A stretch of DNA of 64,000 bases from Labilithrix luteola (GCF_001263205.1 NZ_CP012333.1:11121377-11185376), one strand, 5' to 3'; shown: positions 2,304 through 19,248, numbered from the stretch's first letter. Made by a program: numbers and translations. The notes: generated by a model not told the origin, from the sequence alone.

Positions 2304-5300
2304 TCAGACCGGATCGCGACGCTTGAGGATGACGAGCAGCATGCCGAGCATGAGGACCGTCATCGCCATGAGAACCGCGATGGGCAAAAAGGCCTGGTCG
2401 TAGTTCACGAAGCCCCACGCGCCCTTCAGCGTGTCGGAGCCCATCTGGGCAATCGCGCACTGGAAGTGGCCGCCGAAGACGTAGTCGGGCGGGCTGTTCA
2501 ACGTGGGGTTCTGAAGATCGATGAGCCATGCCGGCTGCTTGGCGATAGCGAGGCGCTCGTGCGCGATCGACCCCTCGAAGCCCCAGCGCGCCGGCATGAT
2601 GTACATGAGCGGCTTGAGCATCGGGTTCGTGGTCATCGGCACCATGAGGCCGCCGAGGACGACCTGCGGGATAAGCGCGATCGGCGTGAGCGACATCGCG
2701 GCTTCCGCCGACTCGACGATCGTGGAAAGCAGGAGGCCGAGCGCCGTCGCGTTCATGGCCACCGCAATGATGACGGCCAGCTCGGAGAGGAAGGCCAGGA
2801 TGCCTCCGTGGAAGCCGAGCGTGAAGAACACGATCCCGAGCAACACCGTGCACTGGAAGATGCAGATGAGCGTCAGGATGATGTACTTCGAGAACACGTA
2901 GTTCACGACCGAGAGATTCACCATGCGCTCACGCAGGTAGATCGCTCGTTCGGTGACGATCTCGCGCGCGGAGTTCGACGTGCCGAACCAGACCGCGCTG
3001 ACGACGACGAAGAACATGGCCGCCGTGTGGTCGTTCGTCGTGAGCATGCGCGCGAGGAGGTCCGACGAGCTTTGCTGGTTGCCCTGGACCTTCTTGCCGA
3101 GCTCTTGCAGCGCTCCGAGGCACCAGAACGGCACGCTCTCTTGCTGCCCGGCGAAGACGAACGCCAGCATGATGCCGATGACAGGCGCCTGCAGGAACAT
3201 GATCGCGGCGCCGGCGCGATCGCGAATCTTCACCTTCCAGTAACGACTCATGAGCAGCGTGAGCTGCGTCATGAGGGCTACCGCCGGCCGGTGAGGAACA
3301 CCGCGTGCGGCAGGCTCGGTGCCGACGGCGCGGCGACCCGAGTACATCTGCTGGAAGACGGGGTTCTGGTTGTTCATGAACTCCGAACGCCAGCCTCTCG
3401 CCGCCTCGAGTCGGGCGGTGTTTCGGGAGACGTTCGGGTCGCGCGCCTTCATCTGGTCCTGCACGACACGCTCACGGATGTTGAGCATGTCGAACATGTC
3501 GCGCGGGTTGTCGATCGTGCGGTTCTGCGCTTGTGGCAGCGACCGATACGGCCCTTCGCGCTCGATGATCGAGGCGAAGAAGCGGTAGCTCGCTTGACCC
3601 GTAGGACCGAAGTACGTCGGGATACCGCCGTAGCCCATGATGAACGCGAGATTGAACTTCTCGTATTCGTCCTTCGCGGGCTGGTGGATCGTCATGATGA
3701 TCGTCTTGCCGGTCTTCTTCGTGAGATCGTGCAAGAGATTGATGAGCGCGGTCGTGTCGTCGGCGGCGAGACCCGAGGTGGGCTCGTCGAGGAAGAGGAT
3801 GACCGGGTCGGTGACGAGCTCGAGCGCGATGTTGACGCGCTTACGCTGACCACCGGAGAGAACCTTCTTCTCGGGCTTTCCGATCTGGAGGTTCTTCACG
3901 CCCTCGAGACCGAGATCGCGCAGCGTCTGCTCGACGCGCTGGTTGATCTCCTCCTCCGAGTAGTCGTTCGGGAGGCGGAAGCGCGCCGAGTACTTCACGG
4001 CCTCGAAGACCGTGAGCTCGGGGTGGACGATGTCGTCCTGCGGGACGTAGCCGATGACGCCGCGGAGCGCGTCGTAGACGGCGTAGAGGTCGTCGCCGTT
4101 GATGCGGACCTGACCGCTCGTGGGCGGCAGGTAGCCGTTGAGCGTCATGAGGAGGGTCGTCTTGCCGGCGCCCGACGGACCCATGAGCGCGATCATGTCG
4201 CCCGGCAAAGCCTTGAACGACACGTGGTCGAGCAAGGTCTTCATCTGGGCCTTGTTGTCGCGATCGGGAACCTCGAGGAAGAGGTCCCACGCTTCGATCT
4301 CGTAGAGCGGCTTGCCTGCCCACGAGGCCTGCTGATCTTCGACGACGACGTTGACCTGCTGGCCGGCGATATGGATCAACACCGGCATCGGGCCGATGTA
4401 GACCTTCTCCCCGTTCGAGACCTGAACGCGCTGGCCCTTCGCGAGGCGCTGGCCGCGCACGAAAGTACCGTTGCCGCTCCCGAGATCTTCGAGGAAGAGC
4501 GTCCCGCCCTGGTCGATGATCTGCGCGTGACGCGCGGAGACCTGCGGGTGCGGGACGACGATCTTGTTCTCCGGCGTTCGTCCGATGGAGATCACGCCGC
4601 CCTGGAGCTGGTCGAGCTTCAGCTCGCCGATGACCGTACGGTGCTTGCGGGGCGCATGGTCGCCACCGCCACCGCCACCGCCACCGCCCGCGGCAGGCGC
4701 GCCACCGGGAGCATGCCCGTGCGCGCCCGTCGGAGCTCCGCCGCCGGCGAACGACTGCGCGATCTGACCGAGCAGCGGCACGGGAATCGGAATCGGCCCG
4801 AACGCGACGACGCCGTTCGGATCGAGCGGCACGGGCTGGTTCGGCGGAATGCGCTGACCGCCGACGTAGGTGCCGCTCGTGGAGCCGGAGTCCTGCACCA
4901 TCATGCGGTCCATCATCACGGTCGCGTGCGTCGCGCTGACCGCCGCGTTGGCGATGACGAGCGTGGCGGTCGCCGCTTCACGGCCGATAATCAGGTGCCC
5001 CGGGGGAGCGCTCAGCTGACCGCGCGCCATCGCCATCATCACGATGGCGGGGTGCGACAGCGGTAGGGGGACCTGACCGAGAACGAACGGGGTGCGGAAG
5101 TCGAAGGGCACCGGCTGGTTCGGCGCCACAGGCGCGCCGTTCGCCGTCGAGGGGCCGGCGCCTCCATCGAGGAAGGCGAGCTGGTTGCCTTGCTTGACGA
5201 TCCTCGCGTGACGAGGAGCGACGCCGGGCCCGTTGAGCACCACGTCGTTGTCGGGTGCACTGCCGATCGAGACTTGTTCCTTGCCGAAGCCGGGAATCAT
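2304..5300 (-). CDS. ABC transporter with three N-terminal FHA domains, then ATPase and ABC-2 permease (Rv1747-like architecture)
   Basis: 998-aa ORF starting at ATG 5300. It has three FHA-like segments (VSIGS...NGAPV, GTYVGGQRI, ISIGRTPENKIVV...SGNGTFVRGQRL). A poly-Gly linker follows. Walker A is GPSGAGKTT, the ABC signature is LSGGQRKRV, and Walker B is ILFLDEPTSGL. The C-terminus has about six hydrophobic helices. Confidence 0.9.
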   Translation of the reverse strand: MIPGFGKEQVSIGSAPDNDVVLNGPGVAPRHARIVKQGNQLAFLDGGAGPSTANGAPVAPNQPVPFDFRTPFVLGQVPLPLSHPAIVMMAMARGQLSAPPGHLIIGREAATATLVIANAAVSATHATVMMDRMMVQDSGSTSGTYVGGQRIPPNQPVPLDPNGVVAFGPIPIPVPLLGQIAQSFAGGGAPTGAHGHAPGGAPAAGGGGGGGGGDHAPRKHRTVIGELKLDQLQGGVISIGRTPENKIVVPHPQVSARHAQIIDQGGTLFLEDLGSGNGTFVRGQRLAKGQRVQVSNGEKVYIGPMPVLIHIAGQQVNVVVEDQQASWAGKPLYEIEAWDLFLEVPDRDNKAQMKTLLDHVSFKALPGDMIALMGPSGAGKTTLLMTLNGYLPPTSGQVRINGDDLYAVYDALRGVIGYVPQDDIVHPELTVFEAVKYSARFRLPNDYSEEEINQRVEQTLRDLGLEGVKNLQIGKPEKKVLSGGQRKRVNIALELVTDPVILFLDEPTSGLAADDTTALINLLHDLTKKTGKTIIMTIHQPAKDEYEKFNLAFIMGYGGIPTYFGPTGQASYRFFASIIEREGPYRSLPQAQNRTIDNPRDMFDMLNIRERVVQDQMKARDPNVSRNTARLEAARGWRSEFMNNQNPVFQQMYSGRRAVGTEPAARGVPHRPAVALMTQLTLLMSRYWKVKIRDRAGAAIMFLQAPVIGIMLAFVFAGQQESVPFWCLGALQELGKKVQGNQQSSSDLLARMLTTNDHTAAMFFVVVSAVWFGTSNSAREIVTERAIYLRERMVNLSVVNYVFSKYIILTLICIFQCTVLLGIVFFTLGFHGGILAFLSELAVIIAVAMNATALGLLLSTIVESAEAAMSLTPIALIPQVVLGGLMVPMTTNPMLKPLMYIMPARWGFEGSIAHERLAIAKQPAWLIDLQNPTLNSPPDYVFGGHFQCAIAQMGSDTLKGAWGFVNYDQAFLPIAVLMAMTVLMLGMLLVILKRRDPV

Positions 5301-5449
5301 GAGGCGGCCATCCTAACCCGGCCGTCCTCCCAACGCGCGCCCGAGTCGCATGGAGAAGCGTCGAAATTCAGCCCGGTGACCGGTCGCCAAGCGTCGCCAG
5401 GCGCGTCAGCACAGGCGTGACGCAGCGGGGCCTCCCCACCTACGAGCGG

Positions 5450-5836
5450 CTATTTCGCGGGGACGAGGCGCATGTTGCACTTGGGACATACGCCCGGTGT
5501 GCTCGAGGTCACTTCCGGGTGCATGGGGCACGCGTACGTCACGGCGGCGTCGCCGGTCGTGCCCGTTTCCCCACGGCCCCCTTCGGCTGAAGCCAATTCG
5601 GCGCCCCCCGTATCGTGAGAATGGGCGTCGTGCGAATGCCCGCCGTGCGCGTGCTCGTGGGGGTGCGCTTCATTTCGCGCCTGAACGGTGGAAACCGCCG
5701 GCGTGCTTCCCTCGGCAGCATGGGGGTTCGACGGATCATGCGGCGACGCCGAAACCGGCGCGGGGCCGAGAGAGCAGGCCGCGAGCGGGAGCGCCATTCC
5801 GAGGAGCCGTGAGCGAGCGATACGACCGAGCTTCAT
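5450..5836 (-). CDS. His-rich metal-binding lipoprotein with C-terminal YxCPMHPE...CPKC heavy-metal-binding motif
   Basis: ATG at 5836 overlaps the copZ stop (TGATG). The protein has a signal peptide plus lipobox LAAC. A His-rich stretch HPHEHAHGGHSHDAHSHD is present. The C-terminus reads YACPMHPEV...GVCPKCNM. Confidence 0.75.
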   Translation of the reverse strand: MKLGRIARSRLLGMALPLAACSLGPAPVSASPHDPSNPHAAEGSTPAVSTVQARNEAHPHEHAHGGHSHDAHSHDTGGAELASAEGGRGETGTTGDAAVTYACPMHPEVTSSTPGVCPKCNMRLVPAK

Positions 5837-6143: not shown

Positions 6144-8429
6144 TTACAGAGCGAAGCGACGAAGGCGCAGGGAATTGGTGAGCACGGAGACGCTGGACAG
6201 AGACATGGCTGCGCTCGCGATGACCGGCGAAAGGAGCCAGCCCGTCCACGGGTAGAGCAGGCCGGCGGCGATGGGGATGCCGACGACGTTGTAGACGAAC
6301 GCCCAGAACAGGTTCTGGCGGATGGTGCGCAACGTCGCGCGCCCGAGGCGCAGCGCCGTGACGAGGCCACCGATGCCGCCGCGCAGAAGGGCGACGTCCG
6401 CCGCGGCGACCGCGACGTCGGCCCCGGAACCGATGGCCACGCCCACGTGCGCTCCCGCGAGAGCGGGCGCGTCGTTGATGCCGTCGCCGACCATCGCCAC
6501 GACGTGTCCTTTCGCGCGCTGCTCGGACACGATGCGTGCTTTGTCTTCGGGGCGAACCTCCGCGAACACGGTCGCGATGCCGAGCTCGGACGCGATGGCC
6601 TCGGCCGTGCTCCTACGGTCACCGGTGATCATCGCGGTGTCGATGCCCATCGCCCGGAGATCCGCGAGAGCGGGCGCGGCTTCAGCCGCCGGGCGATCGG
6701 CGACGGCAACGAGCCCCGCGAGCCGATCGGCGCGTGCGACGAAGAACGGCGTCCGACCCTGGCGGGCGAGGTTCTCGGCCTCGCGCGCAAGCGGCTCGGG
6801 ATCGACTCCGCCATCGCGCAGCCACGCGGCCGTGCCGACGCGAACACGTGCATCACCGATCGTCGCTTCGACGCCAGCTCCCACGACACTACGGAAGTCG
6901 TACGAGGGCGCGATGGCGAGCGTCTTTTCTCGCGCAGCCGTCACGACCGCGCGCGCGAGAGGATGCTCGCTCGACGACTCGGCACTCGCGGCAAGCGCGA
7001 GAAGCTCGTCGCTCCCCTCGCCCGTCACGCTCACCACGTCCGTGAGGGTTGGTTTGCCCGTCGTCAACGTGCCGGTTTTGTCGAAGAGCACCAGGTTCAC
7101 GCGGCTCGCGGCCTCGAGCGACGCGCCACCCTTCACGAGCACGCCGAGCTCTGCACCGCGACCGGTTCCCACGGCCACCGCCGCAGGCGTGGCAAGTCCG
7201 AGCGCACACGGGCATGCGATGACGAGCACCGCCACGAAGCGCTCGATGGCCGTCGCCACGCCCTGGGAGGTCGGGTCGAGCGCGAGCCAGACCGCGAACG
7301 TCACCGCCGCGATCGCGAGCACCACGGGAACGAACACGGCACTGACGCGATCGGCGAGCCGGGCGATGGGCGCCTTGGAGCCTTGCGCCTGCTCGACGGC
7401 CTCGATGATGCGTGCCAGAGCGCCTTCCTTGCCCGTCTTCGTCACACGCACCGTGAGCGCGCCGCTCTGGTTGAGCGTTCCACCGAAGGCTGGCGAGCCC
7501 TCGGTCTTGTCGACAGGAAGGCTCTCGCCGGTCAGCATCGACTCGTCGACCGCCGAGCGTCCACGCACGACCTCGCCGTCCGCGGGCAATCGTTCACCGG
7601 GGCGTACGAGAATCGTATCGCCAGGCAGGAGCGTCGCGGAGGGCACGTCTTCCTCGATGTCGCCGCGCAGGCGATGCGCGGTCTTCGGTGCGAGCGCGAC
7701 GAGGCCTTTCACGGCGTCCGCGAGGTGCTTGCGAGCCCGAGTCTCGAGCAGTTTGCCGAGCAGGACGAACGTCAGAATCGCCGCCGCGGCTTCGAAGTAG
7801 AGGTGCGGGACGAGACCGTGCGACGCGTGGGGAAACACACCGGGCGCGACGAGCGCGACGGTCGAATAGATCCACGCGGCCCCCGTTCCGATCGCGATGA
7901 GCGTATTCATGTCCGCGGCGCGATGCGCGAGCGCGATCCACGCGAGGCGGAAGAAGCGTCGGCCTGGCCCGAAGACGACGGGGGTGGCGAGCAGGAACTG
8001 CAACCAGCGCCCGGGCAGCGTCGTCGTCCATGGCCAGAGCCCGTGCGACATGGCCACGACGAGGAGCGGAACGGTGAGCACGGCCGCGAAAGTGACCGAT
8101 CGGCGGAGCTCACGCTGCTCGCGCTCCTCGGGCTCGCTCGCCTCTTTGGTCTCTTCGACCGGCGCGGGACGCACGAGCTCGTAGCCGGCCTTGGCGACAG
8201 CCGCGGCAAGAGCATCGAAGGTCGTCGCGCCTTCACCGAACGTGACCGTGGCGCGCCGCGTGGCGAGGTTCACCTGCGCCGAGCGAACGCCGCCGACGTC
8301 GTTCAAGGCCTTTTCGACGCGCCGAACGCAGGCCGCACACGTCATCCCCTCGACCGGGAGATCGAGCCGCGTCTCGGGAACGTCGGACGCGTTGAGCGAG
8401 GGGGACTGCATCGGAAGGGCTGCCATCAT
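6144..8429 (-). CDS. copA: Copper-translocating P1B-type ATPase
   Basis: N-terminal HMA domain GMTCAACV. Transmembrane CPC motif. Phosphorylation site DKTGTLT. Hinge GDGINDAPAL. 761 aa. Confidence 0.95.
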   Translation of the reverse strand: MMAALPMQSPSLNASDVPETRLDLPVEGMTCAACVRRVEKALNDVGGVRSAQVNLATRRATVTFGEGATTFDALAAAVAKAGYELVRPAPVEETKEASEPEEREQRELRRSVTFAAVLTVPLLVVAMSHGLWPWTTTLPGRWLQFLLATPVVFGPGRRFFRLAWIALAHRAADMNTLIAIGTGAAWIYSTVALVAPGVFPHASHGLVPHLYFEAAAAILTFVLLGKLLETRARKHLADAVKGLVALAPKTAHRLRGDIEEDVPSATLLPGDTILVRPGERLPADGEVVRGRSAVDESMLTGESLPVDKTEGSPAFGGTLNQSGALTVRVTKTGKEGALARIIEAVEQAQGSKAPIARLADRVSAVFVPVVLAIAAVTFAVWLALDPTSQGVATAIERFVAVLVIACPCALGLATPAAVAVGTGRGAELGVLVKGGASLEAASRVNLVLFDKTGTLTTGKPTLTDVVSVTGEGSDELLALAASAESSSEHPLARAVVTAAREKTLAIAPSYDFRSVVGAGVEATIGDARVRVGTAAWLRDGGVDPEPLAREAENLARQGRTPFFVARADRLAGLVAVADRPAAEAAPALADLRAMGIDTAMITGDRRSTAEAIASELGIATVFAEVRPEDKARIVSEQRAKGHVVAMVGDGINDAPALAGAHVGVAIGSGADVAVAAADVALLRGGIGGLVTALRLGRATLRTIRQNLFWAFVYNVVGIPIAAGLLYPWTGWLLSPVIASAAMSLSSVSVLTNSLRLRRFAL

Positions 8430-8475: not shown

Positions 8476-9846
8476 TCAGAGGCTTCCGCCGGCCGCACGA
8501 CACGCCTTTTCGTAGGTTTCGACGAGGTTCGCGGGCTTGCCGGCCTTTTTGGCCCAGCGAGCTCGAGCACATTCGCGGGGCTCGCCGTTCGGAGGCGACG
8601 CATCCGGATCGAGCCACCACTTCGCCGCGCTCCCACTCGGGCTCGTGAGCGGCGGTACGGGCGTGACGTCGGTGGTGACGCTTGCGTCCTCGTTCGAGTC
8701 GGTCGACGCCGCGGCGTCGCGCATGCCAGCGTCGTTCGCGACGATCGGAACGTTGACGTGCTTGGGCTGGTTGAGCGTCCACACGAGAACGCCGGCGATG
8801 GCGAGCGCGATGAGAGCGAGCCCGATGCCGATGGCGAGCGGTGCGCGCGACCGCCCTGCCCCCGCCTCCGACGGACGATTCGGAGCCGGCGGAATACCGA
8901 CGACCGCGGACACGGGAGGATTGCCCCCCACCGGCGTTGCCGCGGGCATCATGTGCGTTCCACCCGCAGGCATGGCGGCATGCGCGGGAGCCATCTGCGT
9001 GCCACGCGGACCCGACGCGCGATCGGGCGGCACGGCGTGCGCCGTGAGCTGCACGGTCTTCACGAGGGTCGCCGACTCGGAGACGGCCGCCGAGGCCTTC
9101 ATCCGGAGCACCATCGCCGTGATGTTGTCGTGGCCTCCTCGTGCATTCGCGAGGTCGACGAGCTGCCCGGCAGCCTGCTGCGCGGGCTTGCCGCCGGCCG
9201 TGTCGAGGATCTCCGCGGGCCCGACGAGATCGCTGAGGCCGTCGGAGCAAAGCACGAGCACGTCGCCTGCGACGTACGGAATCGGCTCCGGTCGAAGCTC
9301 GACCTCCACGTCTTTGGCGATGCCGAGCGCGCGCAGAATCTTGTTCGCGTCGGGATGCGATGCGGCGTCCTCGGCGCGGATGATGTTGTGCTCCACCATC
9401 TGCTGGACCATCGAATGGTCCTTCGTCACCTGCGCGATCGCCCCGGCGTGCACGAGGTAGATTCGACTGTCGCCAACGTGGGCGATGTCCGCGCCGCCCG
9501 GGTGGACGAGCGCGGCGACGACGGTCGAGCCCGGCCGATGGCCGCTCTCGTTGGTGGGCATCGACCACACGCGTCGATTCGCTTCTTCGATCGCCACGCG
9601 AAGCGCATCGCGCGGCTTGGTCATCGGCGGAGCGCTCTGCACGAGCTCGACGATCGTCTTGACCGCGAGCTCCGAGGCCTCCTTGCCGCCCGCATGACCG
9701 CCCATGCCGTCACACACGACGGCGAGCAGACCGAGCGCGGTCTCGACGTGCCTTGCCGAGTCTTCGTTGACCTGCTTCTCCGGATCACGACCAGGGTCGG
9801 TCCGGAAAGCGATCTCGACGGCAGGAACGTTGGCGCGCTCGGTCAC
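8476..9846 (-). CDS. PP2C-family Ser/Thr phosphatase with C-terminal TM segment and extracytoplasmic tail
   Basis: GTG start at 9846 with GAGAGGAA RBS. PPM motifs LAVVCDGMGGHAGG and GGHDNITAMV. A hydrophobic helix LAIGIGLALIALAIAGVLVW follows. The stop is 12 nt from the upstream FHA gene. Confidence 0.85.
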   Translation of the reverse strand: MTERANVPAVEIAFRTDPGRDPEKQVNEDSARHVETALGLLAVVCDGMGGHAGGKEASELAVKTIVELVQSAPPMTKPRDALRVAIEEANRRVWSMPTNESGHRPGSTVVAALVHPGGADIAHVGDSRIYLVHAGAIAQVTKDHSMVQQMVEHNIIRAEDAASHPDANKILRALGIAKDVEVELRPEPIPYVAGDVLVLCSDGLSDLVGPAEILDTAGGKPAQQAAGQLVDLANARGGHDNITAMVLRMKASAAVSESATLVKTVQLTAHAVPPDRASGPRGTQMAPAHAAMPAGGTHMMPAATPVGGNPPVSAVVGIPPAPNRPSEAGAGRSRAPLAIGIGLALIALAIAGVLVWTLNQPKHVNVPIVANDAGMRDAAASTDSNEDASVTTDVTPVPPLTSPSGSAAKWWLDPDASPPNGEPRECARARWAKKAGKPANLVETYEKACRAAGGSL

Positions 9847-9858: not shown

Positions 9859-12558
9859 TCAATCGATGCGGACGCTGAACTCGACGGGCCCGAAACGAAG
9901 GGTGCCGCCAGATGCCACAGGAGTCCAGACGGCAGGTTGGATGCGCCCGCCGCCGACGTAGGTTCCGTTGTTCGAGTTCTCGTCGCGAACGAAGAGCTGC
10001 ACACCCTCGAACTTGAGGGTCGCGTGCACACCGCTCACACGAGGCTCGATCAACGTGATGGGACACTGCGCAGGATCACGTCCTACGCGAACCTCGACAC
10101 CGGCGCGGATGGCGAACTGCCCAGCCGCGCCGATGATCGTGGCGCCGGTCGGATTGCCGACCGCGCCGTACGGATTAGGCGGAGGTTCGAGGGGAGACGG
10201 AAGCGCTCCGGTGAGCGGAAACGCTTCGGGCGAGGACGCCTGCCCCGCGCCCGACGCGGCGGAGGCGAGGTCGCGCGGCAGAGGCTGACCGCACGAGAAG
10301 CACACCGCCGACTGACCAGGCGTCGCCATCGTGAGCATGTTGCAGGCGGGGCAGCGCACCTGAACGACCGGCGCGCCCCCCGCTACGGCTAAAGGGTAGC
10401 CACCTCCTTTCGGTTCGGGGGGAGGTGGGACGGGGGACGGGGGGACGGGGGCCGGAGGCGCGTAGGCCGCCTGCGCGAACGCAGGAGCTTGGGCCTGTGC
10501 CTGCGCGACAGGCGCCGGCGCAGCGCCGTACACCGCTGCGGGAGCTTCCTCGGCGGACGCACCGTAGCCACCGCCACCGCCGCCCGAGCCGTAGTTGCCA
10601 CCGCCATAGCCACCGCCAGGCTGGTTGCCACCACCGTAGCCGCCGCCACCGTAGCCCCCACCACCGTAGGGCGGTGCACCGCCACCGGCGACGACCGGCT
10701 GGGGCGGGGGCTGGTTCGCGCGCTTGCCACCCTTGCCACCGCCGCCACCGCGCAGGAGCACGACGAGGAGGAGCAGGATGACGACGACGATGCCGGCGGC
10801 GCCGAGGATGATCGGAAGGTTGAGCGGCTTCTTGCCGGCCTTCAGCGAGAGCACGGTCTCGGCGGTGACACCGCTTCCGCGCTTTGCCCTGTTGTCGTAG
10901 AGGACGACGCGTGTAACGGCAGTCTCGCCCGAGCCCTCGATGATCTTATCCTCGTCGGGGACGTTGAAGACGGCGAACGTCTCGCTCGTTTCGAGCGCAC
11001 CGCCGCGCATGTTCTGGGCGATGAGGTTCGCCATGGCGGCCTTGGCCACCTCGGGATCGTTGCGATTGACGTTCGTGTCCGGCTTCGTGCCGGCGGGAAC
11101 GAAGTACGCCTCGGCGCGGCTCTTGTCGCCGGCCCAGCAGAAGTCACCGTAGACGCGGAACGTACCGCCCGGGTGGACGGGGTTCTGGGCGGCCTCGGCC
11201 TGCGTCTGCGCGACGTTGATGTTGAGCGGCCAGGCGGTGGGGTCGACGCCGATCGGCACGTCCTTGAACGACCCGTCGGGTCCGATCATGGGCGTGACGT
11301 TCTGGAAGAACAGATTGAACGACTGTTCCGGCGTGGTCGCGAGGCAGCCGAGGCGCCACTTGACGACCCACATCTGGTTGAAGCGCGACTTGACGAGACC
11401 AAGAATCTTGGTGGCCTTCGTCACGCCCTGACCGGTGCGCACGATGTCGAAGAAGCCGCCGATCTCGACGTTCGCGAGATCCTGCATGAACTGCATGTCG
11501 TTCGACGCATACAGATCGTTCGTCAGGCCTCCCGAGTTCGGGAAGAAGATCGAGATGACCGGCAGCGGCGTCTTCGGCGCAAGCGGGTTGTTCTCGGGGA
11601 AGCGGCCATTGTTGAAGTACTGCTTCATGGCCTCGGCGCTGACCGCCGCGCTGCCCGCGTCTTCACGGCCCGCGCCGTTCGACAGGAAGACCATCGCCTG
11701 GTGCATCGGAACGCTCTGAATCGCGCCCGAGTTGCCGATGTCACCGAACGACTGCGTGATGCTCTTGATCTGGTTGAACAGCGGGCGGCCGCGCTGGTGC
11801 GAAGGCGACGTGCTCGGGTTCGCGTTCAGGATGTTCACGAGCGTCGCCTTCTGCGCCGCGGGAACCCACGACGAGTTGGCGACGTACGGGCTGATGCGAT
11901 CGTCGAAGATGATGAGCTTCGCGATGTCGTTCTTGCCCATCGTGCCGATGAACTGGTTCGCGACCTGACGCGCGTCCTCGTAGCGGGCGCCCATCATGCT
12001 CGATGCATCGAGCGCGATGAGCCACGCCGTGCCGACCAGAGGGTCGTTGCCGGCCTGCGACCACTGCGCCTTGCTGTCGAACTTCGCGGGAAGGTCGCTG
12101 CCGTCGACGCGCACCGTGAAGCGGGCGTTCGCCTCGGAGAACGGGAACGCCTTCCAGAGGACGTTCGGCTTCTCCACCGCTTCGGAGATGCAGTCGAGGA
12201 GCGGGTTGCCCTTCTGCTGGCCGCAGCCGGCATTCGTGACGACCTCGCTCATCGGCGAGAACTGCACGACTTCGACGACCGTCGTGAGCAGCGGCTGCTG
12301 CCCGGCCATACCCGCCCGCGGATCGATGCGGAGGATGTTGGCCTTCGGCGCGGCGCTGGCCGACGTCGCGAAGGACAGCGTTCCCAGGAGCACGACGAGC
12401 GCCGTCCAGAGGGAGGACTGGCGTGATTCACGACGGGCGCGGCTGGGGCGGCTGGGGCGGCCGGGGCGGCTGAGACACGAGGCGTTCGGTAATGTTCGCT
12501 TGCTCATTTCGAAAGGCTCGACCTTTCCCGCATGCCGACGGGCGGACACGCGGCGCAA
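9859..12558 (-). CDS. Membrane-anchored FHA protein: signal peptide, large extracytoplasmic (vWA-like) domain, TM, Gly/Tyr-rich linker, zinc ribbon, C-terminal FHA
   Basis: Signal peptide SLWTALVVLLGTLSFATSASA. Extracytoplasmic segment includes LIALDASSMMG...LIIFDDR. TM helix LNLPIILGAAGIVVVILLLLVVLL. (GGGYGGG)n low-complexity linker. CxxC...CxxC zinc ribbon. C-terminal FHA LIEPRVSGVHATL...NSNNGTYVGG. Start is uncertain: alternative ATG at 12507 (MSKRT...). Confidence 0.8.
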   Translation of the reverse strand: MRRVSARRHAGKVEPFEMSKRTLPNASCLSRPGRPSRPSRARRESRQSSLWTALVVLLGTLSFATSASAAPKANILRIDPRAGMAGQQPLLTTVVEVVQFSPMSEVVTNAGCGQQKGNPLLDCISEAVEKPNVLWKAFPFSEANARFTVRVDGSDLPAKFDSKAQWSQAGNDPLVGTAWLIALDASSMMGARYEDARQVANQFIGTMGKNDIAKLIIFDDRISPYVANSSWVPAAQKATLVNILNANPSTSPSHQRGRPLFNQIKSITQSFGDIGNSGAIQSVPMHQAMVFLSNGAGREDAGSAAVSAEAMKQYFNNGRFPENNPLAPKTPLPVISIFFPNSGGLTNDLYASNDMQFMQDLANVEIGGFFDIVRTGQGVTKATKILGLVKSRFNQMWVVKWRLGCLATTPEQSFNLFFQNVTPMIGPDGSFKDVPIGVDPTAWPLNINVAQTQAEAAQNPVHPGGTFRVYGDFCWAGDKSRAEAYFVPAGTKPDTNVNRNDPEVAKAAMANLIAQNMRGGALETSETFAVFNVPDEDKIIEGSGETAVTRVVLYDNRAKRGSGVTAETVLSLKAGKKPLNLPIILGAAGIVVVILLLLVVLLRGGGGGKGGKRANQPPPQPVVAGGGAPPYGGGGYGGGGYGGGNQPGGGYGGGNYGSGGGGGGYGASAEEAPAAVYGAAPAPVAQAQAQAPAFAQAAYAPPAPVPPSPVPPPPEPKGGGYPLAVAGGAPVVQVRCPACNMLTMATPGQSAVCFSCGQPLPRDLASAASGAGQASSPEAFPLTGALPSPLEPPPNPYGAVGNPTGATIIGAAGQFAIRAGVEVRVGRDPAQCPITLIEPRVSGVHATLKFEGVQLFVRDENSNNGTYVGGGRIQPAVWTPVASGGTLRFGPVEFSVRID

Positions 12559-12697: not shown

Positions 12698-13735
12698 TCA
12701 GACGCGCGTGACGATCTTCACGATGGTCGTGAAGCCGCCGAAGCGGACCTTGTCACCGTCACGAAGGTCGCGCTTACCGTTGAAGCCAATGTGCTCTTCG
12801 TTGACGAACGTGCCGTTCGTCGAGCCCGTGTCTTCGACGGTGATCGTGCCGGCCGTCGCGTCGACGACGAGCGCCGCGTGGCGGGACGAAATCGTCGCGT
12901 CGGACAGGGGGATGTCCACTTGCTCGCCCGAATTCGCACGGCCGACCGTCTTGCGTCCGCCCTGGAGCGGCCAGAAGTCACCCTGCGTGTTCGCTTGGTA
13001 CGCGACGAGGAAGCCACGGAGCGCGTTCGGCGGGAGATTCAGCGGAGGAGCGGCGGCGGGCGTGGGAGGCGCGCCGTAGCCAGCGGCCTGCGGAGCGGGC
13101 GGCGGGGGGGCGCCGAATCCCTGCTGATCCGGCGGGCCGAAGCCAGGCTGCGGGGCATAGCCTTGCGCCGGCGGAGGAGCGCCGAACGGCTGCTGCGGAG
13201 GCGCACCGAAGGGCTGCTGCGGGGGCGGGAATCCGCCCTGGGGCTGGCCGTAGCCACCGTACTGCGCGTTGGGATCCGGATATGGTTGACCATATCCCTG
13301 CTGCACGGGATCAGGCGCGTAGCCCGGCATGCCCGCCGGAGCGCCGAACCCCGGCTGCGGAGGAGGCGCGCCAAACCCCGGCTGCTGACCGTACTGCGGC
13401 TGCGGCGGGGGGAAGCCACCTTGCGGCTGGCCGTAGCCACCGCCGTACTGGTCATTGGCGAACGGCATCGCGTCGAGCGCGATGGGGTGACCGTGCGGGC
13501 AGTAGCTCTGGCCCGGAGCAATGTCGTGACCCATCTGACAACGCAGCGGCGCGCCCTGACCGGGCGCAGGAGCGCCGTAGGCGTTCGGCGGCGGAGCACC
13601 GAAGCCACCTTGCGCGGGAGGAGGCGCGAAACCTCCGGGGGCGCCAAAGCCTGGCTGGGCGGTCGGGGTCCCGCAAATGTTGCAGAACTTGTCCGTCGGC
13701 TGAGGGGTCGCACCGCACTGCGGACACGGATTCAT
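12698..13735 (-). CDS. Zinc-ribbon / Pro-Gln-Gly-rich / C-terminal FHA domain protein
   Basis: ATG 13735 with GGAG 9 nt upstream. N-terminus MNPCPQCG...CNICG. Long PQGGF/PGFGAPP low-complexity region. C-terminal FHA (DIPLSDATISSRHAALV...GSTNGTFVN). Confidence 0.75.
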   Translation of the reverse strand: MNPCPQCGATPQPTDKFCNICGTPTAQPGFGAPGGFAPPPAQGGFGAPPPNAYGAPAPGQGAPLRCQMGHDIAPGQSYCPHGHPIALDAMPFANDQYGGGYGQPQGGFPPPQPQYGQQPGFGAPPPQPGFGAPAGMPGYAPDPVQQGYGQPYPDPNAQYGGYGQPQGGFPPPQQPFGAPPQQPFGAPPPAQGYAPQPGFGPPDQQGFGAPPPPAPQAAGYGAPPTPAAAPPLNLPPNALRGFLVAYQANTQGDFWPLQGGRKTVGRANSGEQVDIPLSDATISSRHAALVVDATAGTITVEDTGSTNGTFVNEEHIGFNGKRDLRDGDKVRFGGFTTIVKIVTRV

Positions 13736-13872
13736 TCGTCGCTCCTGAGGCGTCACGTCGGATTGTCCAACGGGCCCCGGCAGCATATCGGAGAACCGCG
13801 GAAAGGCGAAAGAGCCGAAGGCGATGGGGCACTGCGCCAAAAAAAGCTAGCTCTGCCAGCCCGCAACGCACT

Positions 13873-15495
13873 TCAGGAAGCGCGTGCGCGTGGGCGAGGA
13901 CGCTTCTTCTCGCCGCTCGAAGCCTTCACCTTCCGCTTCGGAACCGTCGTTGCCGTGGGCGGGAGAGCCTTCGGTTGCGGGGCAGCGCCGATCGCCGCGA
14001 TGGCGGCTTCGAGGACGGCGCGCACGGGCACGTCGTGCTCGCGCGCGGCCGCTAGGCATGCCGAAAATTCCGGCTTGCGGGACGGAGGACCAAACGGGCC
14101 GGCCGCGACCTTGACGGGGATCGTCCCGTACGGCGTCGCGACGTGTTCGACGTGCCGGGGCCTCGTCACGCGCGCGACCTCGTGACGGCGGACGCCAATC
14201 GTCGTGCTCTCGCGCAGCATCACGGCGGCGATGTCGTCGGCCTGCGCGAGCGGAGCAAGCGCGCAGAGCTGGAACGCCGGACGCCCCTTCTTCATGGTCA
14301 TCGGGACGACCCACGCATCGAGCGCGCCCTCGGCGAGAAGCGCGTCGATACAATGACCGAGGAGCTCGCCGGTCGCATCGTCGATGTTCGCCTCGAGCAC
14401 GGCGTGCGTCGTGGTCGGCACCATCGACGTCGCTTCGCCGAGCACCACACGAAGGAGGTTCGGTCGGTCGCGGAGGTTCGCGGTGCCCGCGCCCCATCCG
14501 GTTCGCTCGGGGGCCATCGCCGGCCATTGCGCGGAGCCTTCTGCGTGCGCCGCGACGATCGCAGCGCCGGTGGGCGTGACGAACTCGAACGCGAGGCCGC
14601 CGTCGTAGGTCGGCAGTCCATGCAAGCACTCGACGACCGCAGGCGGCGGGAGCGGCAGCACGCCATGACGCGCCTTCACCCAACCGTGGCCCATCGGAAG
14701 CGGCGACACGACGACGCGCGCACCGAGATACTCGAGGGCCGCCGCGCTTCCGACCACGTCGACGATGGCATCGACCGCACCGACTTCGTGGAAATGCACG
14801 TCGTCGATCGGCATGCGATGAACCCGCGATTCCGACTCGGCGAGCTTCCGGAACGTGGCCTGCGCCCGCTCTTTCACCCCGCGCGGAAGCTTGGACGCAT
14901 CGAGCATCTTGCGGATGGCCCCGTAGGTCCGCTCCGGCTGCTTCCCGTCGACGTGAACGTCGAACGCGGTCGCGACGATCCCACTGCGCTCACGCGTACC
15001 GAAGTGCACGTGAAAGCCCTTCAGCGGAAGCAGCGCGACGGCGTTGGTGACGACCTTCTCGGGTACCCCGAGGTCGACGAGCGCCGCAATGATCATGTCC
15101 CCCGCGAGCCCACTCGGAGCATCGAAGAACAGGGTCTTTCCATGCCCCGCACCGAGCTTCAGACCCTCGCGGCTCCCCCCGTGCGCGTGCACGTGTCCAT
15201 GCCCATGAGCGTGGCCGTGCTCGTGATCGTGATCATGTCCGTGAGCATGCGCATGATCATGAGGATGCGCGTGTCCATGAGCATGCGAATGGCCGTGCTC
15301 GTCTTCATGATCATGGCCTGCGCCGTGCGCATGGAGCTCGTCGTCGGCGTGGGCGTGATCGTGATGCGCGTGAGCATGGGCATGTTCGTGCCCGTGTTCG
15401 TGCGCGTGCACGGTGCCGTCGGCGTGACCGTGCGCGTGCGCGTGGACGTGGCCGTGCGTCTTCGCGCCTTTGATCTTCTTCTTTTTCGCGCTCAC
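13873..15495 (-). CDS. larC: Nickel-pincer cofactor biosynthesis protein LarC (nickel insertase) with His-rich N-terminal extension
   Basis: GTG 15495 (GGAG upstream) overlaps the larB stop (GTGA). About 90 aa of HxHxH repeats (HGHVHAHAHGH...). DUF111/LarC core follows: TLFFDAPSGLAGDMIIAALVDLG. Confidence 0.8.
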   Translation of the reverse strand: MSAKKKKIKGAKTHGHVHAHAHGHADGTVHAHEHGHEHAHAHAHHDHAHADDELHAHGAGHDHEDEHGHSHAHGHAHPHDHAHAHGHDHDHEHGHAHGHGHVHAHGGSREGLKLGAGHGKTLFFDAPSGLAGDMIIAALVDLGVPEKVVTNAVALLPLKGFHVHFGTRERSGIVATAFDVHVDGKQPERTYGAIRKMLDASKLPRGVKERAQATFRKLAESESRVHRMPIDDVHFHEVGAVDAIVDVVGSAAALEYLGARVVVSPLPMGHGWVKARHGVLPLPPPAVVECLHGLPTYDGGLAFEFVTPTGAAIVAAHAEGSAQWPAMAPERTGWGAGTANLRDRPNLLRVVLGEATSMVPTTTHAVLEANIDDATGELLGHCIDALLAEGALDAWVVPMTMKKGRPAFQLCALAPLAQADDIAAVMLRESTTIGVRRHEVARVTRPRHVEHVATPYGTIPVKVAAGPFGPPSRKPEFSACLAAAREHDVPVRAVLEAAIAAIGAAPQPKALPPTATTVPKRKVKASSGEKKRPRPRARAS

Positions 15496-16268
15496 GGCGT
15501 GCTCCGCGCGGCGCGGGCGCGTGCCCGGAGAATGCGCACCGCCGCAAAGGCCGCGCCGAACCCGTTGTCGATGTTGACGACCGTGATGCCCGAAGCGCAG
15601 CTCGTGAGCATGCCGAGCATCGCCGCAAGGCCGTGGAATGCCGCGCCGTAGCCGACCGACGTCGGGACGGCGATGACCGGCACGTCGACAAGACCGCCGA
15701 CGACGCTGGAGAGCGCGCCCTCCATGCCCGCGATGACGATGATGACGCCGGCCTCCTCGAGGAGCGGGCGCTTGTGGAGCAGGCGGTGAAGGCCCGCCAC
15801 GCCGACGTCGAAGATGCGGTCGAAGGTGACGCCGAGCATGCGCATGGTCTCGGCGCATTCCTCGGCCACGGGCAGATCGCTGGTTCCCGCGCTGACGAGG
15901 GCGACCTTGGTGTCCGAGAGAGGGACGATGGGCGAGCGCTCGAGCGTGCAGGTGCGCGCCATCGGGGAGTGTTTCATCCCCTCGATCTCACTCACGACGA
16001 CCGCCGCCTTCGCGTCGTCGACGCGCGTGACGAGCACGTTCTGGCCGGTGCGCGCGAGCTCCTTCGCGATCGCCACGATCTGCGCCGCCGTCTTGCCTTC
16101 CCCGAGGATCACCTCCGGAACGCCCTGACGGATCGCGCGATGGTGGTCGACGTGCGCAAAGCCGAGATCGGCGAACGGCAGCTGCCGCAACTCCGTCAAC
16201 GCATCTTCGATCGGCGTACCGCCGGCTCGTACGCGCGCGAGCAGATCCTTGAGTCGAGCTTCGTCCAC
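15492..16268 (-). CDS. larB: Nickel-pincer cofactor biosynthesis protein LarB (PurE-like carboxylase/hydrolase)
   Basis: 258 aa. PurE-like C-terminal half VALVSAGTSDLPVAEE...VIIVIAGMEGAL...VIAVPTSVGYG. N-terminal LarB-specific region. Translationally coupled to larC. Confidence 0.75.
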   Translation of the reverse strand: MDEARLKDLLARVRAGGTPIEDALTELRQLPFADLGFAHVDHHRAIRQGVPEVILGEGKTAAQIVAIAKELARTGQNVLVTRVDDAKAAVVVSEIEGMKHSPMARTCTLERSPIVPLSDTKVALVSAGTSDLPVAEECAETMRMLGVTFDRIFDVGVAGLHRLLHKRPLLEEAGVIIVIAGMEGALSSVVGGLVDVPVIAVPTSVGYGAAFHGLAAMLGMLTSCASGITVVNIDNGFGAAFAAVRILRARARAARSTP

Positions 16269-17224: not shown

Positions 17225-17254
17225 CGGGCTCGGGCGTGCTAGAACGAACTGGCT

Positions 17255-17845
17255 ATGTGGGTCCGCGGCGCGGCCATCCGTCCTGTTCCACCGTACGCGG
17301 TCGTCGATCGTCGTGTGCTCGATACCATCGAGGACGAGCTCGCCGAGAACGGGCAACGTACGAAGTCGGATCTCGATGACGCCTTCGGGCGCTTCGAGAA
17401 CACGCAGCCTGCCCTCGCCCACGAAGCCGCGCAGGTGCTCGCGCGCCCGCTCGATCAAACGGCGCTCGCCCTCGGGTACTTCCTCACGATCGCCGTGTGG
17501 ATGGCGTTCGACCGCGCGTTCGGAAGCCGCCTCGCCGAGGTGACGGAAGACGAGCTGCGGGCCGCCGAGAGCGCGCTCACGCTCGAAGAAGAACTTCGTG
17601 CTGCGCACGCCAACGAGCCCCTCGAGCTCGACGACGTTATGGCGATCGAGCAGCCGGGCGTTCTCGGTTTCATCAATGAGCACCTCGAAGCGGCCCTCGA
17701 ACCGAGCGATTCGCGCGAAGAGACGCGCGAGGTCGACGTCGACGACGTGCACACGGTCTATCGCACGGTGCTGATCATGACCCTCGCCCTCTCCCACGCG
17801 GTGGGAACGGCGTCGGGAGCGAGACCGCGCGAGATGCTCGCGTAG
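17255..17845 (+). CDS. Hypothetical protein
   Basis: 196-aa ORF with coding-like GC3 bias. The central segment is hydrophobic (ALALGYFLTIAVWMAF). No recognisable motif. Confidence 0.45.
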   Translation: MWVRGAAIRPVPPYAVVDRRVLDTIEDELAENGQRTKSDLDDAFGRFENTQPALAHEAAQVLARPLDQTALALGYFLTIAVWMAFDRAFGSRLAEVTEDELRAAESALTLEEELRAAHANEPLELDDVMAIEQPGVLGFINEHLEAALEPSDSREETREVDVDDVHTVYRTVLIMTLALSHAVGTASGARPREMLA

Positions 17846-17994
17846 GCGGTTGCGCAAAGCTCGCGACTATTTGTCGCAAACACGCTCGGCGCGGCCCACG
17901 GCCCCGCTGCACCTACTCGAAACCACACAAAAAATTCTGCTGTCCCGTCACGTGGTCGTTGCTGCCAGACGCCTAGCGTCGAGCTATCTTCACC

Positions 17995-19248
17995 GTGATG
18001 TCCCATACGACTCGTCGTTCCAGAGAAGACGAGCGGAGATTCGGCGTCGTCGTCGGTGGGAAGTGGCGCATCGATGGCTTCTTGGGGAAGGGTTCGACCT
18101 CGTCGATCTACTCCGCAACCCACGAACGCGGCGCTCGCGCCGCCATCAAGATGCTCCATGCATCGCGCGCCCGTGACGAACACGCGGTGCGTGAGCTGCT
18201 CGACGAAGCGCGTCTCGCGCGCGCGGTCGATCACCCGGGGATCGTTCGCGTCATCGACGACGGCGTAACCGAAGACCGATGCCGATTTCTCGTGCTCGAG
18301 CTCGTGGATGGCCCCACGCTCGAAGAGCGGAGAGAGGCGCGCGGTGGTCGGCTTCCGCTGCACGAAGCGATCGCCGTCGGCGATGCGCTCATGTCGGCGC
18401 TGGCGGCGCTCCACGACGCGGGCATCGTGCATCGCGACCTCAAGCCCGACAACGTCCTCTTGGGCCGCGATGGGGCCATCAAACTGATCGACTTCGGCCT
18501 CGCGCGCGAGATGGGCGCGTCCGCCGAACGCGCAGAGGCTCTCCTCGTCGGAACACCTTCGTTCATGCCTCCGGAGCAAGCCCTCGGCTTCTCCGAGCGC
18601 ATGGATGCGCGTTCGGACGTCTGGGCGCTCGGCGCGCTCCTCTTCTACGTCCTCACGGGTCAGACCGTTCACGAAGGCAAGCACTCGCGCGCCATCGTGC
18701 TCGCGACCGCGTCGACGCCCGCTCGTTCGCTCGCCACCGTGGCCCCCGACCTGCCTCCGGCCATCGTCGAGGTCGTGGATCGTGCGCTTCGTTTCCGACG
18801 CGCCGAACGCTGGGCGGACATGCGCGCGATGCAGCACGCCTGGCGCGCAGCGTACCCCGACTGGCTGCCGACGATTCCCCCAGACACGCGTTTGTCGGAA
18901 GCGAGTCTCGTCGTCGGAACGCCGATGAGCCTCGTGATCCCCGGGCCGCCGAAGATGCCCGAGGTCGAGACGGCGGTTTCCGCGGATCCCGCGCCGCGAA
19001 GCACCATCCCTTCGCGCCATCGAAGCGAGCGGACCAAGGCGCGCCTTTTCTTCGCAGGACTCGTGGCGGCGACGGCCGGCGCGGTCACGTGGGCGGCGGA
19101 GAACGGGTCGCTCTTCCCGTCCGCCACCAACGCGAGCGTCACCTCGCTCGCTCCCCCACCCCCTGTGACCGCAACCTTCGCCGCGTGGCCTGCCGAGCTT
19201 GGCGCCCACGATGCGGGGCTCGGCCAGCGCGACGGCTCGCCTCTCTGA
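17995..19248 (+). CDS. Hanks-type Ser/Thr protein kinase
   Basis: Gly-loop GKGSTSSIY. Lys AIKML. Catalytic loop HRDLKPDNVL. DFG motif. The C-terminus is Pro/Ala-rich with a probable TM segment LFFAGLVAATAGAVTWA. Confidence 0.9.
   Translation: MMSHTTRRSREDERRFGVVVGGKWRIDGFLGKGSTSSIYSATHERGARAAIKMLHASRARDEHAVRELLDEARLARAVDHPGIVRVIDDGVTEDRCRFLVLELVDGPTLEERREARGGRLPLHEAIAVGDALMSALAALHDAGIVHRDLKPDNVLLGRDGAIKLIDFGLAREMGASAERAEALLVGTPSFMPPEQALGFSERMDARSDVWALGALLFYVLTGQTVHEGKHSRAIVLATASTPARSLATVAPDLPPAIVEVVDRALRFRRAERWADMRAMQHAWRAAYPDWLPTIPPDTRLSEASLVVGTPMSLVIPGPPKMPEVETAVSADPAPRSTIPSRHRSERTKARLFFAGLVAATAGAVTWAAENGSLFPSATNASVTSLAPPPPVTATFAAWPAELGAHDAGLGQRDGSPL

Follow-up and report, generated by a model that had tools for sequence, protein, structure and literature searches.

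Gene content of the minus-strand run

The apparent phospho-Ser/Thr signalling island of Labilithrix luteola (GCF_001263205.1, NZ_CP012333.1:11121377-11185376; this whole stretch of 64,000 nt is called the window below) resolves into a conserved module of four genes and an insertion. The module encodes a vWA-FHA protein, a ZnR-FHA protein, a phosphatase of the PP2C family and an ABCG exporter with three FHA-like stretches, and is a widely conserved, uncharacterised unit of the Polyangia. The insertion consists of copper efflux (cop) genes. The evidence favours a tolerated insertion over a copper cassette controlled by the FHA and PP2C proteins, and the juxtaposition of copper and FHA genes is probably historical, through a single ancestral insertion, vertical inheritance and read-through from PP2C, rather than a designed regulatory circuit.

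Pfam searches and reading of the sequence recovered all genes named in an earlier sequence-only reading, at or near the places assigned to them (Table 1); the fourth FHA gene, which had been put at 57467, is also present. The run lies entirely on the minus strand with short gaps, as had been noticed: 12 nt from FHA-TM to PP2C, the distance given before, 46 nt from PP2C to copA, 74 nt from copA to copZ, an overlap of the copZ stop with the start of the HMBD-lipoprotein gene, and 149 nt from the latter to FHA-ABC. ZnR-FHA is the first gene of the module, with an AGGAG Shine-Dalgarno sequence 5' of the ATG at 13735, and a terminator-like hairpin with a T-run (13862-13844) lies between it and LarB-LarC. 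An S41 peptidase gene is found 21 nt past FHA-ABC. The cop segment does not stand out from its neighbours in GC content (0.69).

Table 1. Features of the window, in nucleotide positions of the 64,000-nt stretch
Feature	Position	Strand	Evidence or remark
FHA-ABC: three FHA-like stretches, ABC_tran, ABC2_membrane	2304..5300	-	Pfam FHA 2.8e-39
TAGGAT, -10-like TAnnnT hexamer	5310..5315	-	ends 9 nt before the FHA-ABC ATG
HMBD lipoprotein, lipobox LAAC	5450..5836/5839	-	Pfam HMBD 3.6e-12
CopZ-type HMA copper chaperone, 77 aa	5836..6069	-	Pfam HMA 2.1e-14
CopA, P1B-1 Cu(I)-exporting ATPase (predicted), one N-terminal HMA	6144..8429	-	Pfam E1-E2_ATPase, Hydrolase, HMA
PP2C Ser/Thr phosphatase, C-terminal TM segment and extracytoplasmic tail	8476..9846	-	Pfam PP2C_2 4.4e-16, PP2C 8.7e-14
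FHA-TM: signal peptide, vWA-fold ectodomain, one TM, Gly-rich linker, Zn ribbon, FHA	9859..12507	-	
ZnR-FHA: Zn-ribbon, P/Q/G-rich linker, C-terminal FHA	12698..13735	-	Pfam FHA 1.4e-16, Zn_ribbon
LarC (Ni_insertion) and LarB (AIRC)	13873..16268	-	Pfam
Membrane-anchored Hanks Ser/Thr kinase	17995..19248	+	Pfam Pkinase 1.1e-44
Fourth FHA gene	about 57374-58672		

Proteins of the module

The description of FHA-TM as an FHA protein with a TM segment was right and incomplete, since a signal peptide, a vWA-fold ectodomain and a Zn ribbon are present as well. Its reading frame is open up to 12558, and the ATG at 12507 is the likely start. The ectodomain has the Rossmann-like alpha/beta fold of a vWA domain. 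A complete MIDAS motif (D-x-S-x-S) is absent from this ectodomain and an imperfect D-A-S-S-M is found instead, in which Asp129 never varies and Ser131 and Ser132 hardly do, the second Ser being shifted by one position.

FHA-ABC does contain FHA sequence, in three FHA-like stretches rather than one. With ABC_tran (residues 357-509) and ABC2_membrane (residues 678-912, both by Pfam) in the same chain, the protein combines two or more FHA domains at its N-terminus with an ABC ATPase and a membrane domain of the ABC-2/ABCG type, as does Mycobacterium tuberculosis Rv1747. The best PDB sequence matches of FHA-ABC were CDR1/PDR5, ABCG2 and ABCA, and its residues 175-225 form a Gly-rich linker containing Thr residues. 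The FHA domains of the module resemble Rv1747 FHA-1 in sequence and fold, and PP2C has a PPM catalytic domain with the metal-binding Asp motifs (DGMGG, DGLSD and GGHDN).

Conservation of the module in related genomes

Synteny was compared at about 60 informative loci from related Labilithrix/Polyangiaceae genomes. The order ZnR-FHA / vWA-TM-FHA / PP2C / FHA-ABC was kept in dozens of genomes, down to about 47-55% protein identity, with ZnR-FHA upstream of FHA-TM and PP2C adjoining FHA-TM in nearly all relatives; FHA-ABC identity ranged from 64 to 91%, and LarB-LarC was present upstream on the same strand in most loci. PP2C was followed directly by FHA-ABC at 23 loci and non-cop inserts were present at 8, whereas copA was carried by only 1 of the 32 FHA-TM-seeded loci showing both genes.

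With this gene order repeated across dozens of related genomes, the clustering of FHA genes is not due to chance. A fortuitous gathering of FHA, PP2C and kinase genes, which are abundant in a 12-Mb myxobacterial genome, with no module behind it, is contradicted by this synteny and is extremely improbable, although it would account for three genes that are not conserved neighbours of the module, namely those for the S41 peptidase, the kinase (17995-19248) and the fourth FHA protein (near 57.4 kb). The signalling island of the sequence-only reading therefore stands for the FHA/PP2C/FHA-ABC order, but the kinase and the fourth FHA gene fall outside it.

The kinase, which has HRDLKPDN and DFG motifs and a C-terminal TM segment, is the sole kinase in the window. 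It is encoded on the opposite strand about 12.7 kb from FHA-ABC and 5 kb beyond the minus-strand run. No orthologue was present at that position in the relatives, where only kinase matches of 30-44% identity were found, at varying positions. It is a candidate to serve as the module's kinase.

The copper cassette

Cu(I) efflux operons with copA and copZ include Bacillus subtilis copZA, which is under CsoR, and Enterococcus hirae copYZAB. The Labilithrix cassette is similar in combining a CopZ-type chaperone with a P1B-1 ATPase that carries a CxxC-containing HMA domain at its N-terminus and the motifs CPC, YN(x4)P and M(xx)SS. All P1B-1 Cu(I) signature motifs are present in the window CopA (CAAC at 31, CPC at 406, DKTGT at 450, YNVVGIP at 713 and MSLSS at 742, besides SEHP and GDGIND), which by these motifs is a predicted P1B-1 Cu(I)-exporting ATPase. 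In contrast to the known operons, the cassette has an extra HMBD lipoprotein, His-rich in one stretch and with its HMBD (CxxC...CxxC) at the C-terminus, and is embedded on the same strand between the PP2C and FHA-ABC genes. It also differs from them in its lack of an adjacent copper-responsive regulator; Pfam analysis of the window showed none of the CueR, CsoR or CopY type beside it. A second CopA paralogue (P0124) is encoded elsewhere in the same genome.

Distribution and origin of the insertion

The PP2C / cop / FHA-ABC arrangement was found in the window and in four other genomes only (L007, L084, L085 and L086, the last being equal to L087), and neither PP2C nor FHA-ABC flanked any of 80 other copA loci. 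The insert consists of copA-copZ-HMBD, copZ-copA or copA alone, depending on the subclade, so that CopZ and the HMBD protein, whose gene is shared with L084 and L085, are not constant members. In the module tree the cop-bearing modules and L004 form one clade with 100% neighbour-joining (NJ) bootstrap; in L004 itself PP2C lies directly beside FHA-ABC, without cop genes. The embedded CopAs, which have diverged to 67-69% identity among the five genomes, cluster together in the NJ tree and are united by 10 derived residues, where the alternative groupings have 1 and 0. This suggests that the cop cassette is a single old insertion, limited to one small lineage.

Since the gene order differs between the two subclades, two captures at the same junction also come into consideration. 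Two or more independent captures, whether by an insertion hotspot or by selection, would further agree with a bootstrap of only 60% for uniting the embedded CopAs, with the window CopA being slightly closer in raw identity to the paralogue from its own genome (73%) than to those of L086 and L007 (68-69%), and with parsimony on the module tree, where one gain plus one loss equals two gains. The junction demonstrably takes other cargo as well. An ABC ATPase with a CPBP-domain membrane protein, a Kef-type exchanger and an STK-MFS-STK set were found there in other genomes, and ParE and HicAB lie beside copA in L007; the sister clade with the ABC_tran and Rce1-like (CPBP-domain) insert also has 100% NJ bootstrap. 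Against repeated capture stand the derived residues, the joint position of the embedded CopAs in the NJ tree and the confinement of every cop-bearing module to one fully supported clade, and we consider it decidedly unlikely. If true, it would argue for selection of the arrangement.

Transcription of the run

At 25 of 29 loci the FHA-ABC ATG is preceded by a TAnnnT hexamer, the distance from its end to the ATG being 6-12 nt, and exactly 9 nt in 18. Only one other TAnnnT occurred in all 60-nt stretches upstream of FHA-ABC, the remaining sequence of which is not conserved. In the window no Shine-Dalgarno sequence is found between TAGGAT and the ATG, and in L086, where the copA stop overlaps the FHA-ABC start, the hexamer is retained inside the 3' end of copA. 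From its conserved sequence and placement the box looks like FHA-ABC's own promoter, giving a leaderless mRNA.

In the cop-bearing loci only 4-92 nt separate the PP2C stop from the start of the first cop gene, and for this reason the cop genes are probably on the PP2C transcript. No terminator-like site was found between PP2C and the first cop gene or, in the window, in any of the gaps from FHA-TM through FHA-ABC; the 149-nt gap before FHA-ABC showed no unusual structure (z = 0.56). The proposed co-transcription is thus plausible for cop with FHA-TM and PP2C, given this spacing and the lack of terminator-like sites between them, but may not extend to FHA-ABC. For that part of the run, the conserved -10-like box at leaderless distance looks like the kind of independent promoter that the sequence-only reading had itself named as counter-evidence.

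Is copper export coupled to the signalling module?

The arrangement does not require coupling between copper export and phospho-signalling. A functional link, with copper export co-expressed with or controlled by the FHA/PP2C circuit and forming one envelope/metal-stress unit with FHA-ABC, would be in keeping with the persistence of the arrangement in five genomes despite the divergence of the embedded CopAs, the tight spacing to PP2C, the copA/FHA-ABC overlap in L086 and the lack of a neighbouring CueR, CsoR or CopY type regulator. The separate CopA paralogue means that the embedded copy could be specialised, and the vWA ectodomain has its MIDAS-like metal site. However, the module predates the cop insert by far, is much more widespread and functions in its absence in most genomes, including L004 within the cop clade, unrelated cargo occupies the same junction in sister clades, and FHA-ABC retains its own promoter-like box. 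Moreover, no N-terminal Thr-containing motif that might serve as an FHA docking site is conserved among the embedded CopAs, and CopZ and the HMBD protein are inconstant. On balance such a link is unlikely. Its specific form for the Labilithrix lineage, in which Cu(I) efflux is expressed, and perhaps post-translationally controlled, by a vWA envelope-sensing phospho-threonine circuit that also drives the Rv1747-like exporter, seems quite unlikely.

We propose instead that the module is a phospho-threonine signalling and export unit of the Polyangia, its exporter built like Rv1747. The vWA domain of FHA-TM would be periplasmic and its Zn-ribbon-FHA part cytoplasmic, with ZnR-FHA as a soluble protein. 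By analogy with Rv1747 and PknF, a Hanks kinase without a constant place in the locus may phosphorylate Thr residues, the five FHA domains may bind these and thereby promote assembly or activation of the exporter, and PP2C may reset the phosphorylation state. The Cu(I) cassette (P1B-1 CopA, CopZ and HMBD lipoprotein) would have entered the junction of PP2C and the exporter gene, most likely in a single event ancestral to a small subclade of Labilithrix, with vertical inheritance afterwards. This junction would be the border of two transcription units, the end of FHA-TM/PP2C and the leaderless-type promoter of the exporter, where insertions are tolerated. The cop genes would probably be read through from FHA-TM/PP2C, yielding a constitutive copper exporter beside the separate CopA paralogue. 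Insertion at a tolerant junction with probable read-through would thus leave a historical juxtaposition.

The cassette has been kept at the exact spot with tight spacing, and with no copper regulator adjacent, over substantial divergence. This runs counter to the insertion reading, and such retention is also a prediction of a functional link.

Significance

The arrangement had been called undescribed, and a full-text literature search indeed returned no description of cop genes within an FHA/PP2C/FHA-ABC run, so a functional link would be new. If FHA/PP2C signalling did control the copper cassette, metal efflux would be regulated in a new way, and such a linkage of Hanks-type signalling to copper homeostasis would be the first in bacteria. 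Of more lasting value is the module itself, a Gram-negative counterpart of the Rv1747 system, with an apparently leaderless exporter gene and one junction that repeatedly accepts cargo. Gene adjacency in a single genome needs to be checked against relatives before regulation is inferred.

Comparison with known systems

In the actinobacterial fhaA-fhaB-pstP cluster, two FHA genes are followed by a membrane PP2C (PstP) with a single TM and an extracytoplasmic tail, on one strand with short gaps. The module likewise has two FHA genes and then a TM-bearing PP2C, on one strand with short gaps. It differs in that rodA/pbpA/pknA/pknB are missing downstream, the FHA-ABC exporter taking the place of the cell-wall genes, and in that one of its FHA proteins bears a large periplasmic vWA domain.

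The kinase PknF acts as a positive regulator of the FHA-ABC exporter Rv1747 (PMC3138270; also PMC3908365). The Labilithrix FHA-ABC has the same plan, N-terminal FHA domains joined with an ABC ATPase and a membrane domain of the ABC-2/ABCG type, and likewise belongs to a setting of Ser/Thr phospho-signalling. Rv1747 has two FHA domains, against three FHA-like stretches in the Labilithrix protein, and its host is an actinobacterium rather than a myxobacterium. In contrast to the pknF-Rv1747 operon, no kinase gene accompanies FHA-ABC or holds a fixed position in relatives; unlike Rv1747, FHA-ABC is partnered by PP2C and two further FHA proteins.

Signalling sets of vWA, FHA and PP2C proteins (plus kinase) include the Deinococcus radiodurans DRA0331-0334 operon (bioRxiv 10.64898/2026.01.23.701218), Sulfolobus ArnA/ArnB (PDB 8s05) and the T6SS proteins PpkA/PppA/Fha1, and the module shares with them the co-occurrence of vWA, FHA and PP2C. 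In contrast to all three, the vWA domain of the module is fused to an FHA protein and predicted to lie outside the cytoplasmic membrane (signal peptide and TM), and the unit encodes no kinase, its apparent output being an ABC exporter. ArnA also combines FHA with a Zn ribbon, and ArnB was among the fold matches of the FHA-TM ectodomain.

Gene content of the run and identity of the proteins

Labilithrix luteola is a myxobacterium with a genome of 12.2 Mb, and the GC content of the window is 62-69%. FHA-TM and CopA of the window each match an L. luteola protein at 100% identity. Genes in the window were assigned by Pfam scans and direct reading of the sequence. This bore out the genes named in the sequence-only reading: the FHA genes, a PP2C phosphatase gene, the minus-strand run with copA, copZ and a HMBD lipoprotein gene (together cop), and a Hanks kinase gene. 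The 661-aa ORF of LarC overlaps LarB by ~370 nt, so its real start is probably near 15490.

Features in the window and at the PP2C/FHA-ABC junction of related loci
Locus	Feature	Position	Strand	Remark
Window	S41/Tricorn-C1/PDZ peptidase	762-2282	-	21-nt gap after FHA-ABC
Window	FHA-ABC (three FHA stretches, ABC_tran, ABC2_membrane)	2304-5300	-	149-nt gap after HMBD lipoprotein
Window	HMBD lipoprotein	5450-5839	-	stop/start overlap with CopZ
Window	CopZ	5836-6069	-	74-nt gap after CopA
Window	CopA	6144-8429	-	46-nt gap after PP2C
Window	PP2C, C-terminal TM segment	8476-9846	-	12-nt gap after FHA-TM
Window	FHA-TM	9859-12507	-	ORF open to 12558
Window	ZnR-FHA (Zn ribbon, PQG-rich, FHA)	12698-13735	-	
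Window	Terminator-like hairpin and T-run	13862-13844		between LarC and ZnR-FHA
Window	LarC (Ni_insertion)	13873 to about 15500	-	Pfam
Window	LarB (AIRC)	15492-16268	-	Pfam
Window	ORFs between LarB and kinase	16399-17857		e.g. 17255-17845 (+)
Window	Hanks kinase, membrane-anchored	17995-19248	+	
Window	Zn-ADH	19199-20350		
Window	MoxR, DUF58 and vWA genes	21087-25465	+	
Window	RCC1-repeat protein	45770-47740	+	
Window	PilT-like ATPase	54180-55337	-	
Window	PilB-like ATPase (MshEN, T2SSE)	55597-57519	-	
Window	Fourth FHA gene	about 57374-58672	+	
L001	ABC ATPase + CPBP insert	14037-16900		Pfam-confirmed
L005	ABC ATPase + CPBP insert	14065-17001		Pfam-confirmed
L011	ABC ATPase + CPBP insert	10155-13006		homologous ORFs
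L019	ABC ATPase + CPBP insert	14655-16721		homologous ORFs
L007	ParE-like toxin, HicA/HicB	13015-14936		

FHA-TM is named 'DNA polymerase III subunits gamma and tau' by NCBI and UniRef. This identity was rejected, as the protein consists of a vWA ectodomain, a TM segment and an FHA domain; the misnomer probably stems from its Pro/Gly-rich low-complexity linker. CopA carries the full P1B-1 Cu(I) signature set (HMA CxxC, CPC, DKTGT, SEHP, GDGxND, YN(x4)P and M(xx)SS), and the cop unit corresponds to a conventional copA-copZ pair without an adjacent regulator. A CopA paralogue of 827 aa (P0124, 73-74% identical) is encoded elsewhere in the L. luteola genome, outside the window, and may be the copper-inducible copy.

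Across the module (ZnR-FHA, FHA-TM, PP2C and FHA-ABC), five FHA domains are spread over three proteins; PP2C is a membrane protein and FHA-ABC an ABCG-type exporter. Actinobacterial fhaA-fhaB-pstP consists of two FHA genes followed by a membrane PP2C gene, an order that the module resembles. [quoted passage not shown] FHA-ABC is ABCG/PDR/ABCA-like by sequence and has the architecture of Mycobacterium tuberculosis Rv1747, an FHA-ABC exporter under positive control by the kinase PknF (PMC3138270). However, Rv1747 has its kinase in the operon, whereas FHA-ABC has no operonic kinase here.

Conservation of the module and content of the junction

An alignment of FHA-TM homologues gave 80 loci from contigs, with one genome per species; more loci were obtained by contig look-ups. 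The window proteins were placed on all retrieved loci with tblastn, which showed that the order LarB-LarC-(ZnR-FHA)-FHA-TM-PP2C was kept down to about 50% identity. In most of the related genomes (L001-L083), LarB and LarC immediately precede the FHA module in the same orientation; LarA and LarE were not identified in the scanned part of the window.

FHA-ABC directly followed PP2C in 23 loci (with a gap of 20 nt in L002), and non-cop genes separated the two in 8 others. Five distant loci were without PP2C and had FHA-ABC directly after FHA-TM, and 17 loci had no FHA-ABC for at least 6 kb past PP2C. The cop genes were found at the junction between PP2C and FHA-ABC in the window and in the loci L007, L084, L085 and L086 (L087 is identical to L086 in gene content). 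The presence of the arrangement in four more genomes rules out a one-off insertion peculiar to L. luteola. The arrangement is confirmed as real and recurs within a small clade. Among the 32 loci of the unbiased, FHA-TM-seeded sample that show both PP2C and FHA-ABC, only 1 carries copA. A full-text search retrieved no paper on genes for copper efflux placed within an FHA/PP2C unit, in agreement with the earlier statement that this is not a described arrangement. The novelty lies mainly in the conserved, so far uncharacterised module.

In the sister clade a two-gene insert recurs at the junction, encoding an ABC ATPase (~245 aa) and a membrane protein (~710 aa) whose C-terminal part is an Rce1-like/CPBP domain (L001, L005, L011 and L019). 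L008 and L030, which belong to the module clade of L001, L005 and L011, had unannotated inserts of comparable size. A Kef-type Na/H exchanger with a TrkA domain occupied the junction in L037, and STK-MFS-STK that in L035. In L007, a Polyangiaceae MAG from a termite-gut sample, genes for a ParE-like toxin and a HicA/HicB pair separate copA from FHA-ABC. Such genes are typical accessory cargo, which supports an insertion-tolerant junction.

Origin of the copper genes

All phylogenies were built by neighbour joining (NJ) only. For the module tree, the FHA-TM ectodomain, PP2C and the ABC core were concatenated. It grouped the window with L004, L007 and L086/87 in one clade with 100% bootstrap support; the sister of this clade, likewise at 100%, was the one with the ABC-ATPase/CPBP insert. 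L004, in which PP2C directly adjoins FHA-ABC, paired with the window in 73% of the replicates.

The CopA proteins encoded at the junction clustered together, apart from P0124, in a tree of 121 CopA sequences, with a bootstrap value of only 60%, and identity between the two embedded subgroups was 68-69%, versus 73% to P0124. Two independent captures of cop at the junction are possible. A common origin is favoured, because 10 shared derived residues unite both embedded CopA groups, versus 1 and 0 for the alternatives, and recurrent capture was judged less likely after the CopA trees, the module tree and this count. As a negative control, a CopA-seeded metagenome scan showed PP2C or FHA-ABC flanks at none of 80 other copA loci; the closest matches were of the two-HMA paralogue type.

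The insert has the order copA-copZ-HMBD in the window, L084 and L085, copZ-copA in L086, and copA with the ParE and HicAB modules in L007. With moderate confidence, we consider cop a single old insertion that was later rearranged into three orders and lost once, in L004. The genome comparison speaks for an insertion that was tolerated and passed on vertically, rather than for a copper-signalling circuit.

Transcription units

The distance from the PP2C stop to the first cop gene ranges from 4 nt (L007) through 18 nt (L086) and 46 nt (window) to 92 nt (L084/85); in L084/85 there is a good Shine-Dalgarno sequence. Between positions 500 and 14500, 9 terminator-like sites were found (6.8 expected), none of them in the cop-flanking gaps. 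Because of these short gaps and the lack of a terminator-like site, cop is probably expressed as part of the FHA-TM/PP2C transcript. A sigma-70 consensus scan returned no promoter in the same region. For a myxobacterium of 67% GC, these promoter and terminator results say little. RNA folding revealed no structured element or terminator in the 149-nt gap before FHA-ABC (z = 0.56).

With the FHA-ABC start codon as anchor, we compared the upstream 60 nt of 29 loci. A TAnnnT hexamer, mostly TAGGAT or TAGTAT, ended 6-12 nt before the ATG in 25 of the 29 loci, and exactly 9 nt before it in 18. Just one further TAnnnT occurred across all these stretches, and the flanking sequence was unconserved. A Shine-Dalgarno reading was rejected: the variants retain T1, A2 and T6 and not the AGGA core, which argues for a -10 box. 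From the distance between this predicted box and the ATG, we infer a leaderless FHA-ABC mRNA; a literature search on leaderless genes in Myxococcota or transcripts in Myxococcus gave nothing usable.

The box is present whether PP2C, cop or other cargo lies upstream, so FHA-ABC probably has its own promoter. In L086 it lies within the 3' end of copA, the stop codon of which overlaps the FHA-ABC start. The proposed co-transcription of copper export with FHA/PP2C signalling may therefore hold in part, for the genes up to the predicted promoter box that FHA-ABC keeps. The insertion point would be the boundary of two transcription units, which would explain why the junction tolerates cargo.

Putative function of the module

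By analogy with Rv1747 and PknF, we infer that a Hanks kinase would place pThr marks for the FHA domains to read, leading to assembly or activation of the exporter, and that PP2C would remove these marks. The periplasmic vWA domain may act as a sensor or anchor. For the cop cassette, the most likely role is that of an ordinary Cu(I) efflux unit, with expression that would be borrowed from the upstream FHA-TM/PP2C unit.

Genes outside the module

The kinase had no positional orthologue in the relatives, where kinase matches were 30-44% identical and varied in position. None of the related loci had an equivalent of the S41 peptidase; this includes L084 and L085, the closest relatives, with an embedded CopA at 88% identity. 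The fourth FHA gene is 50 kb off and adjoins genes for PilB-like and PilT-like ATPases. Since these three genes are not conserved neighbours, what remains of the signalling island suggested earlier is a single conserved module of four genes, together with the cop insert.

The fourth FHA gene is divergent from the PilB-like ATPase gene, which is followed by that of the PilT-like ATPase; a link of this FHA protein to a type IV pilus or secretion ATPase, unrelated to the module, is possible. ORFs in the stretch from LarB to the kinase show a good GC3 bias but no Pfam match; at the equivalent spot, relatives encode two small proteins (about 182 and 200 aa), also without Pfam match. The MoxR AAA+ ATPase, DUF58 and vWA genes form a Bat/MoxR-type cluster, and in many relatives MoxR and Zn-ADH are likewise conserved as neighbours of the module. 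An RCC1 (beta-propeller) protein similar to that of the window is encoded near the module in L001.
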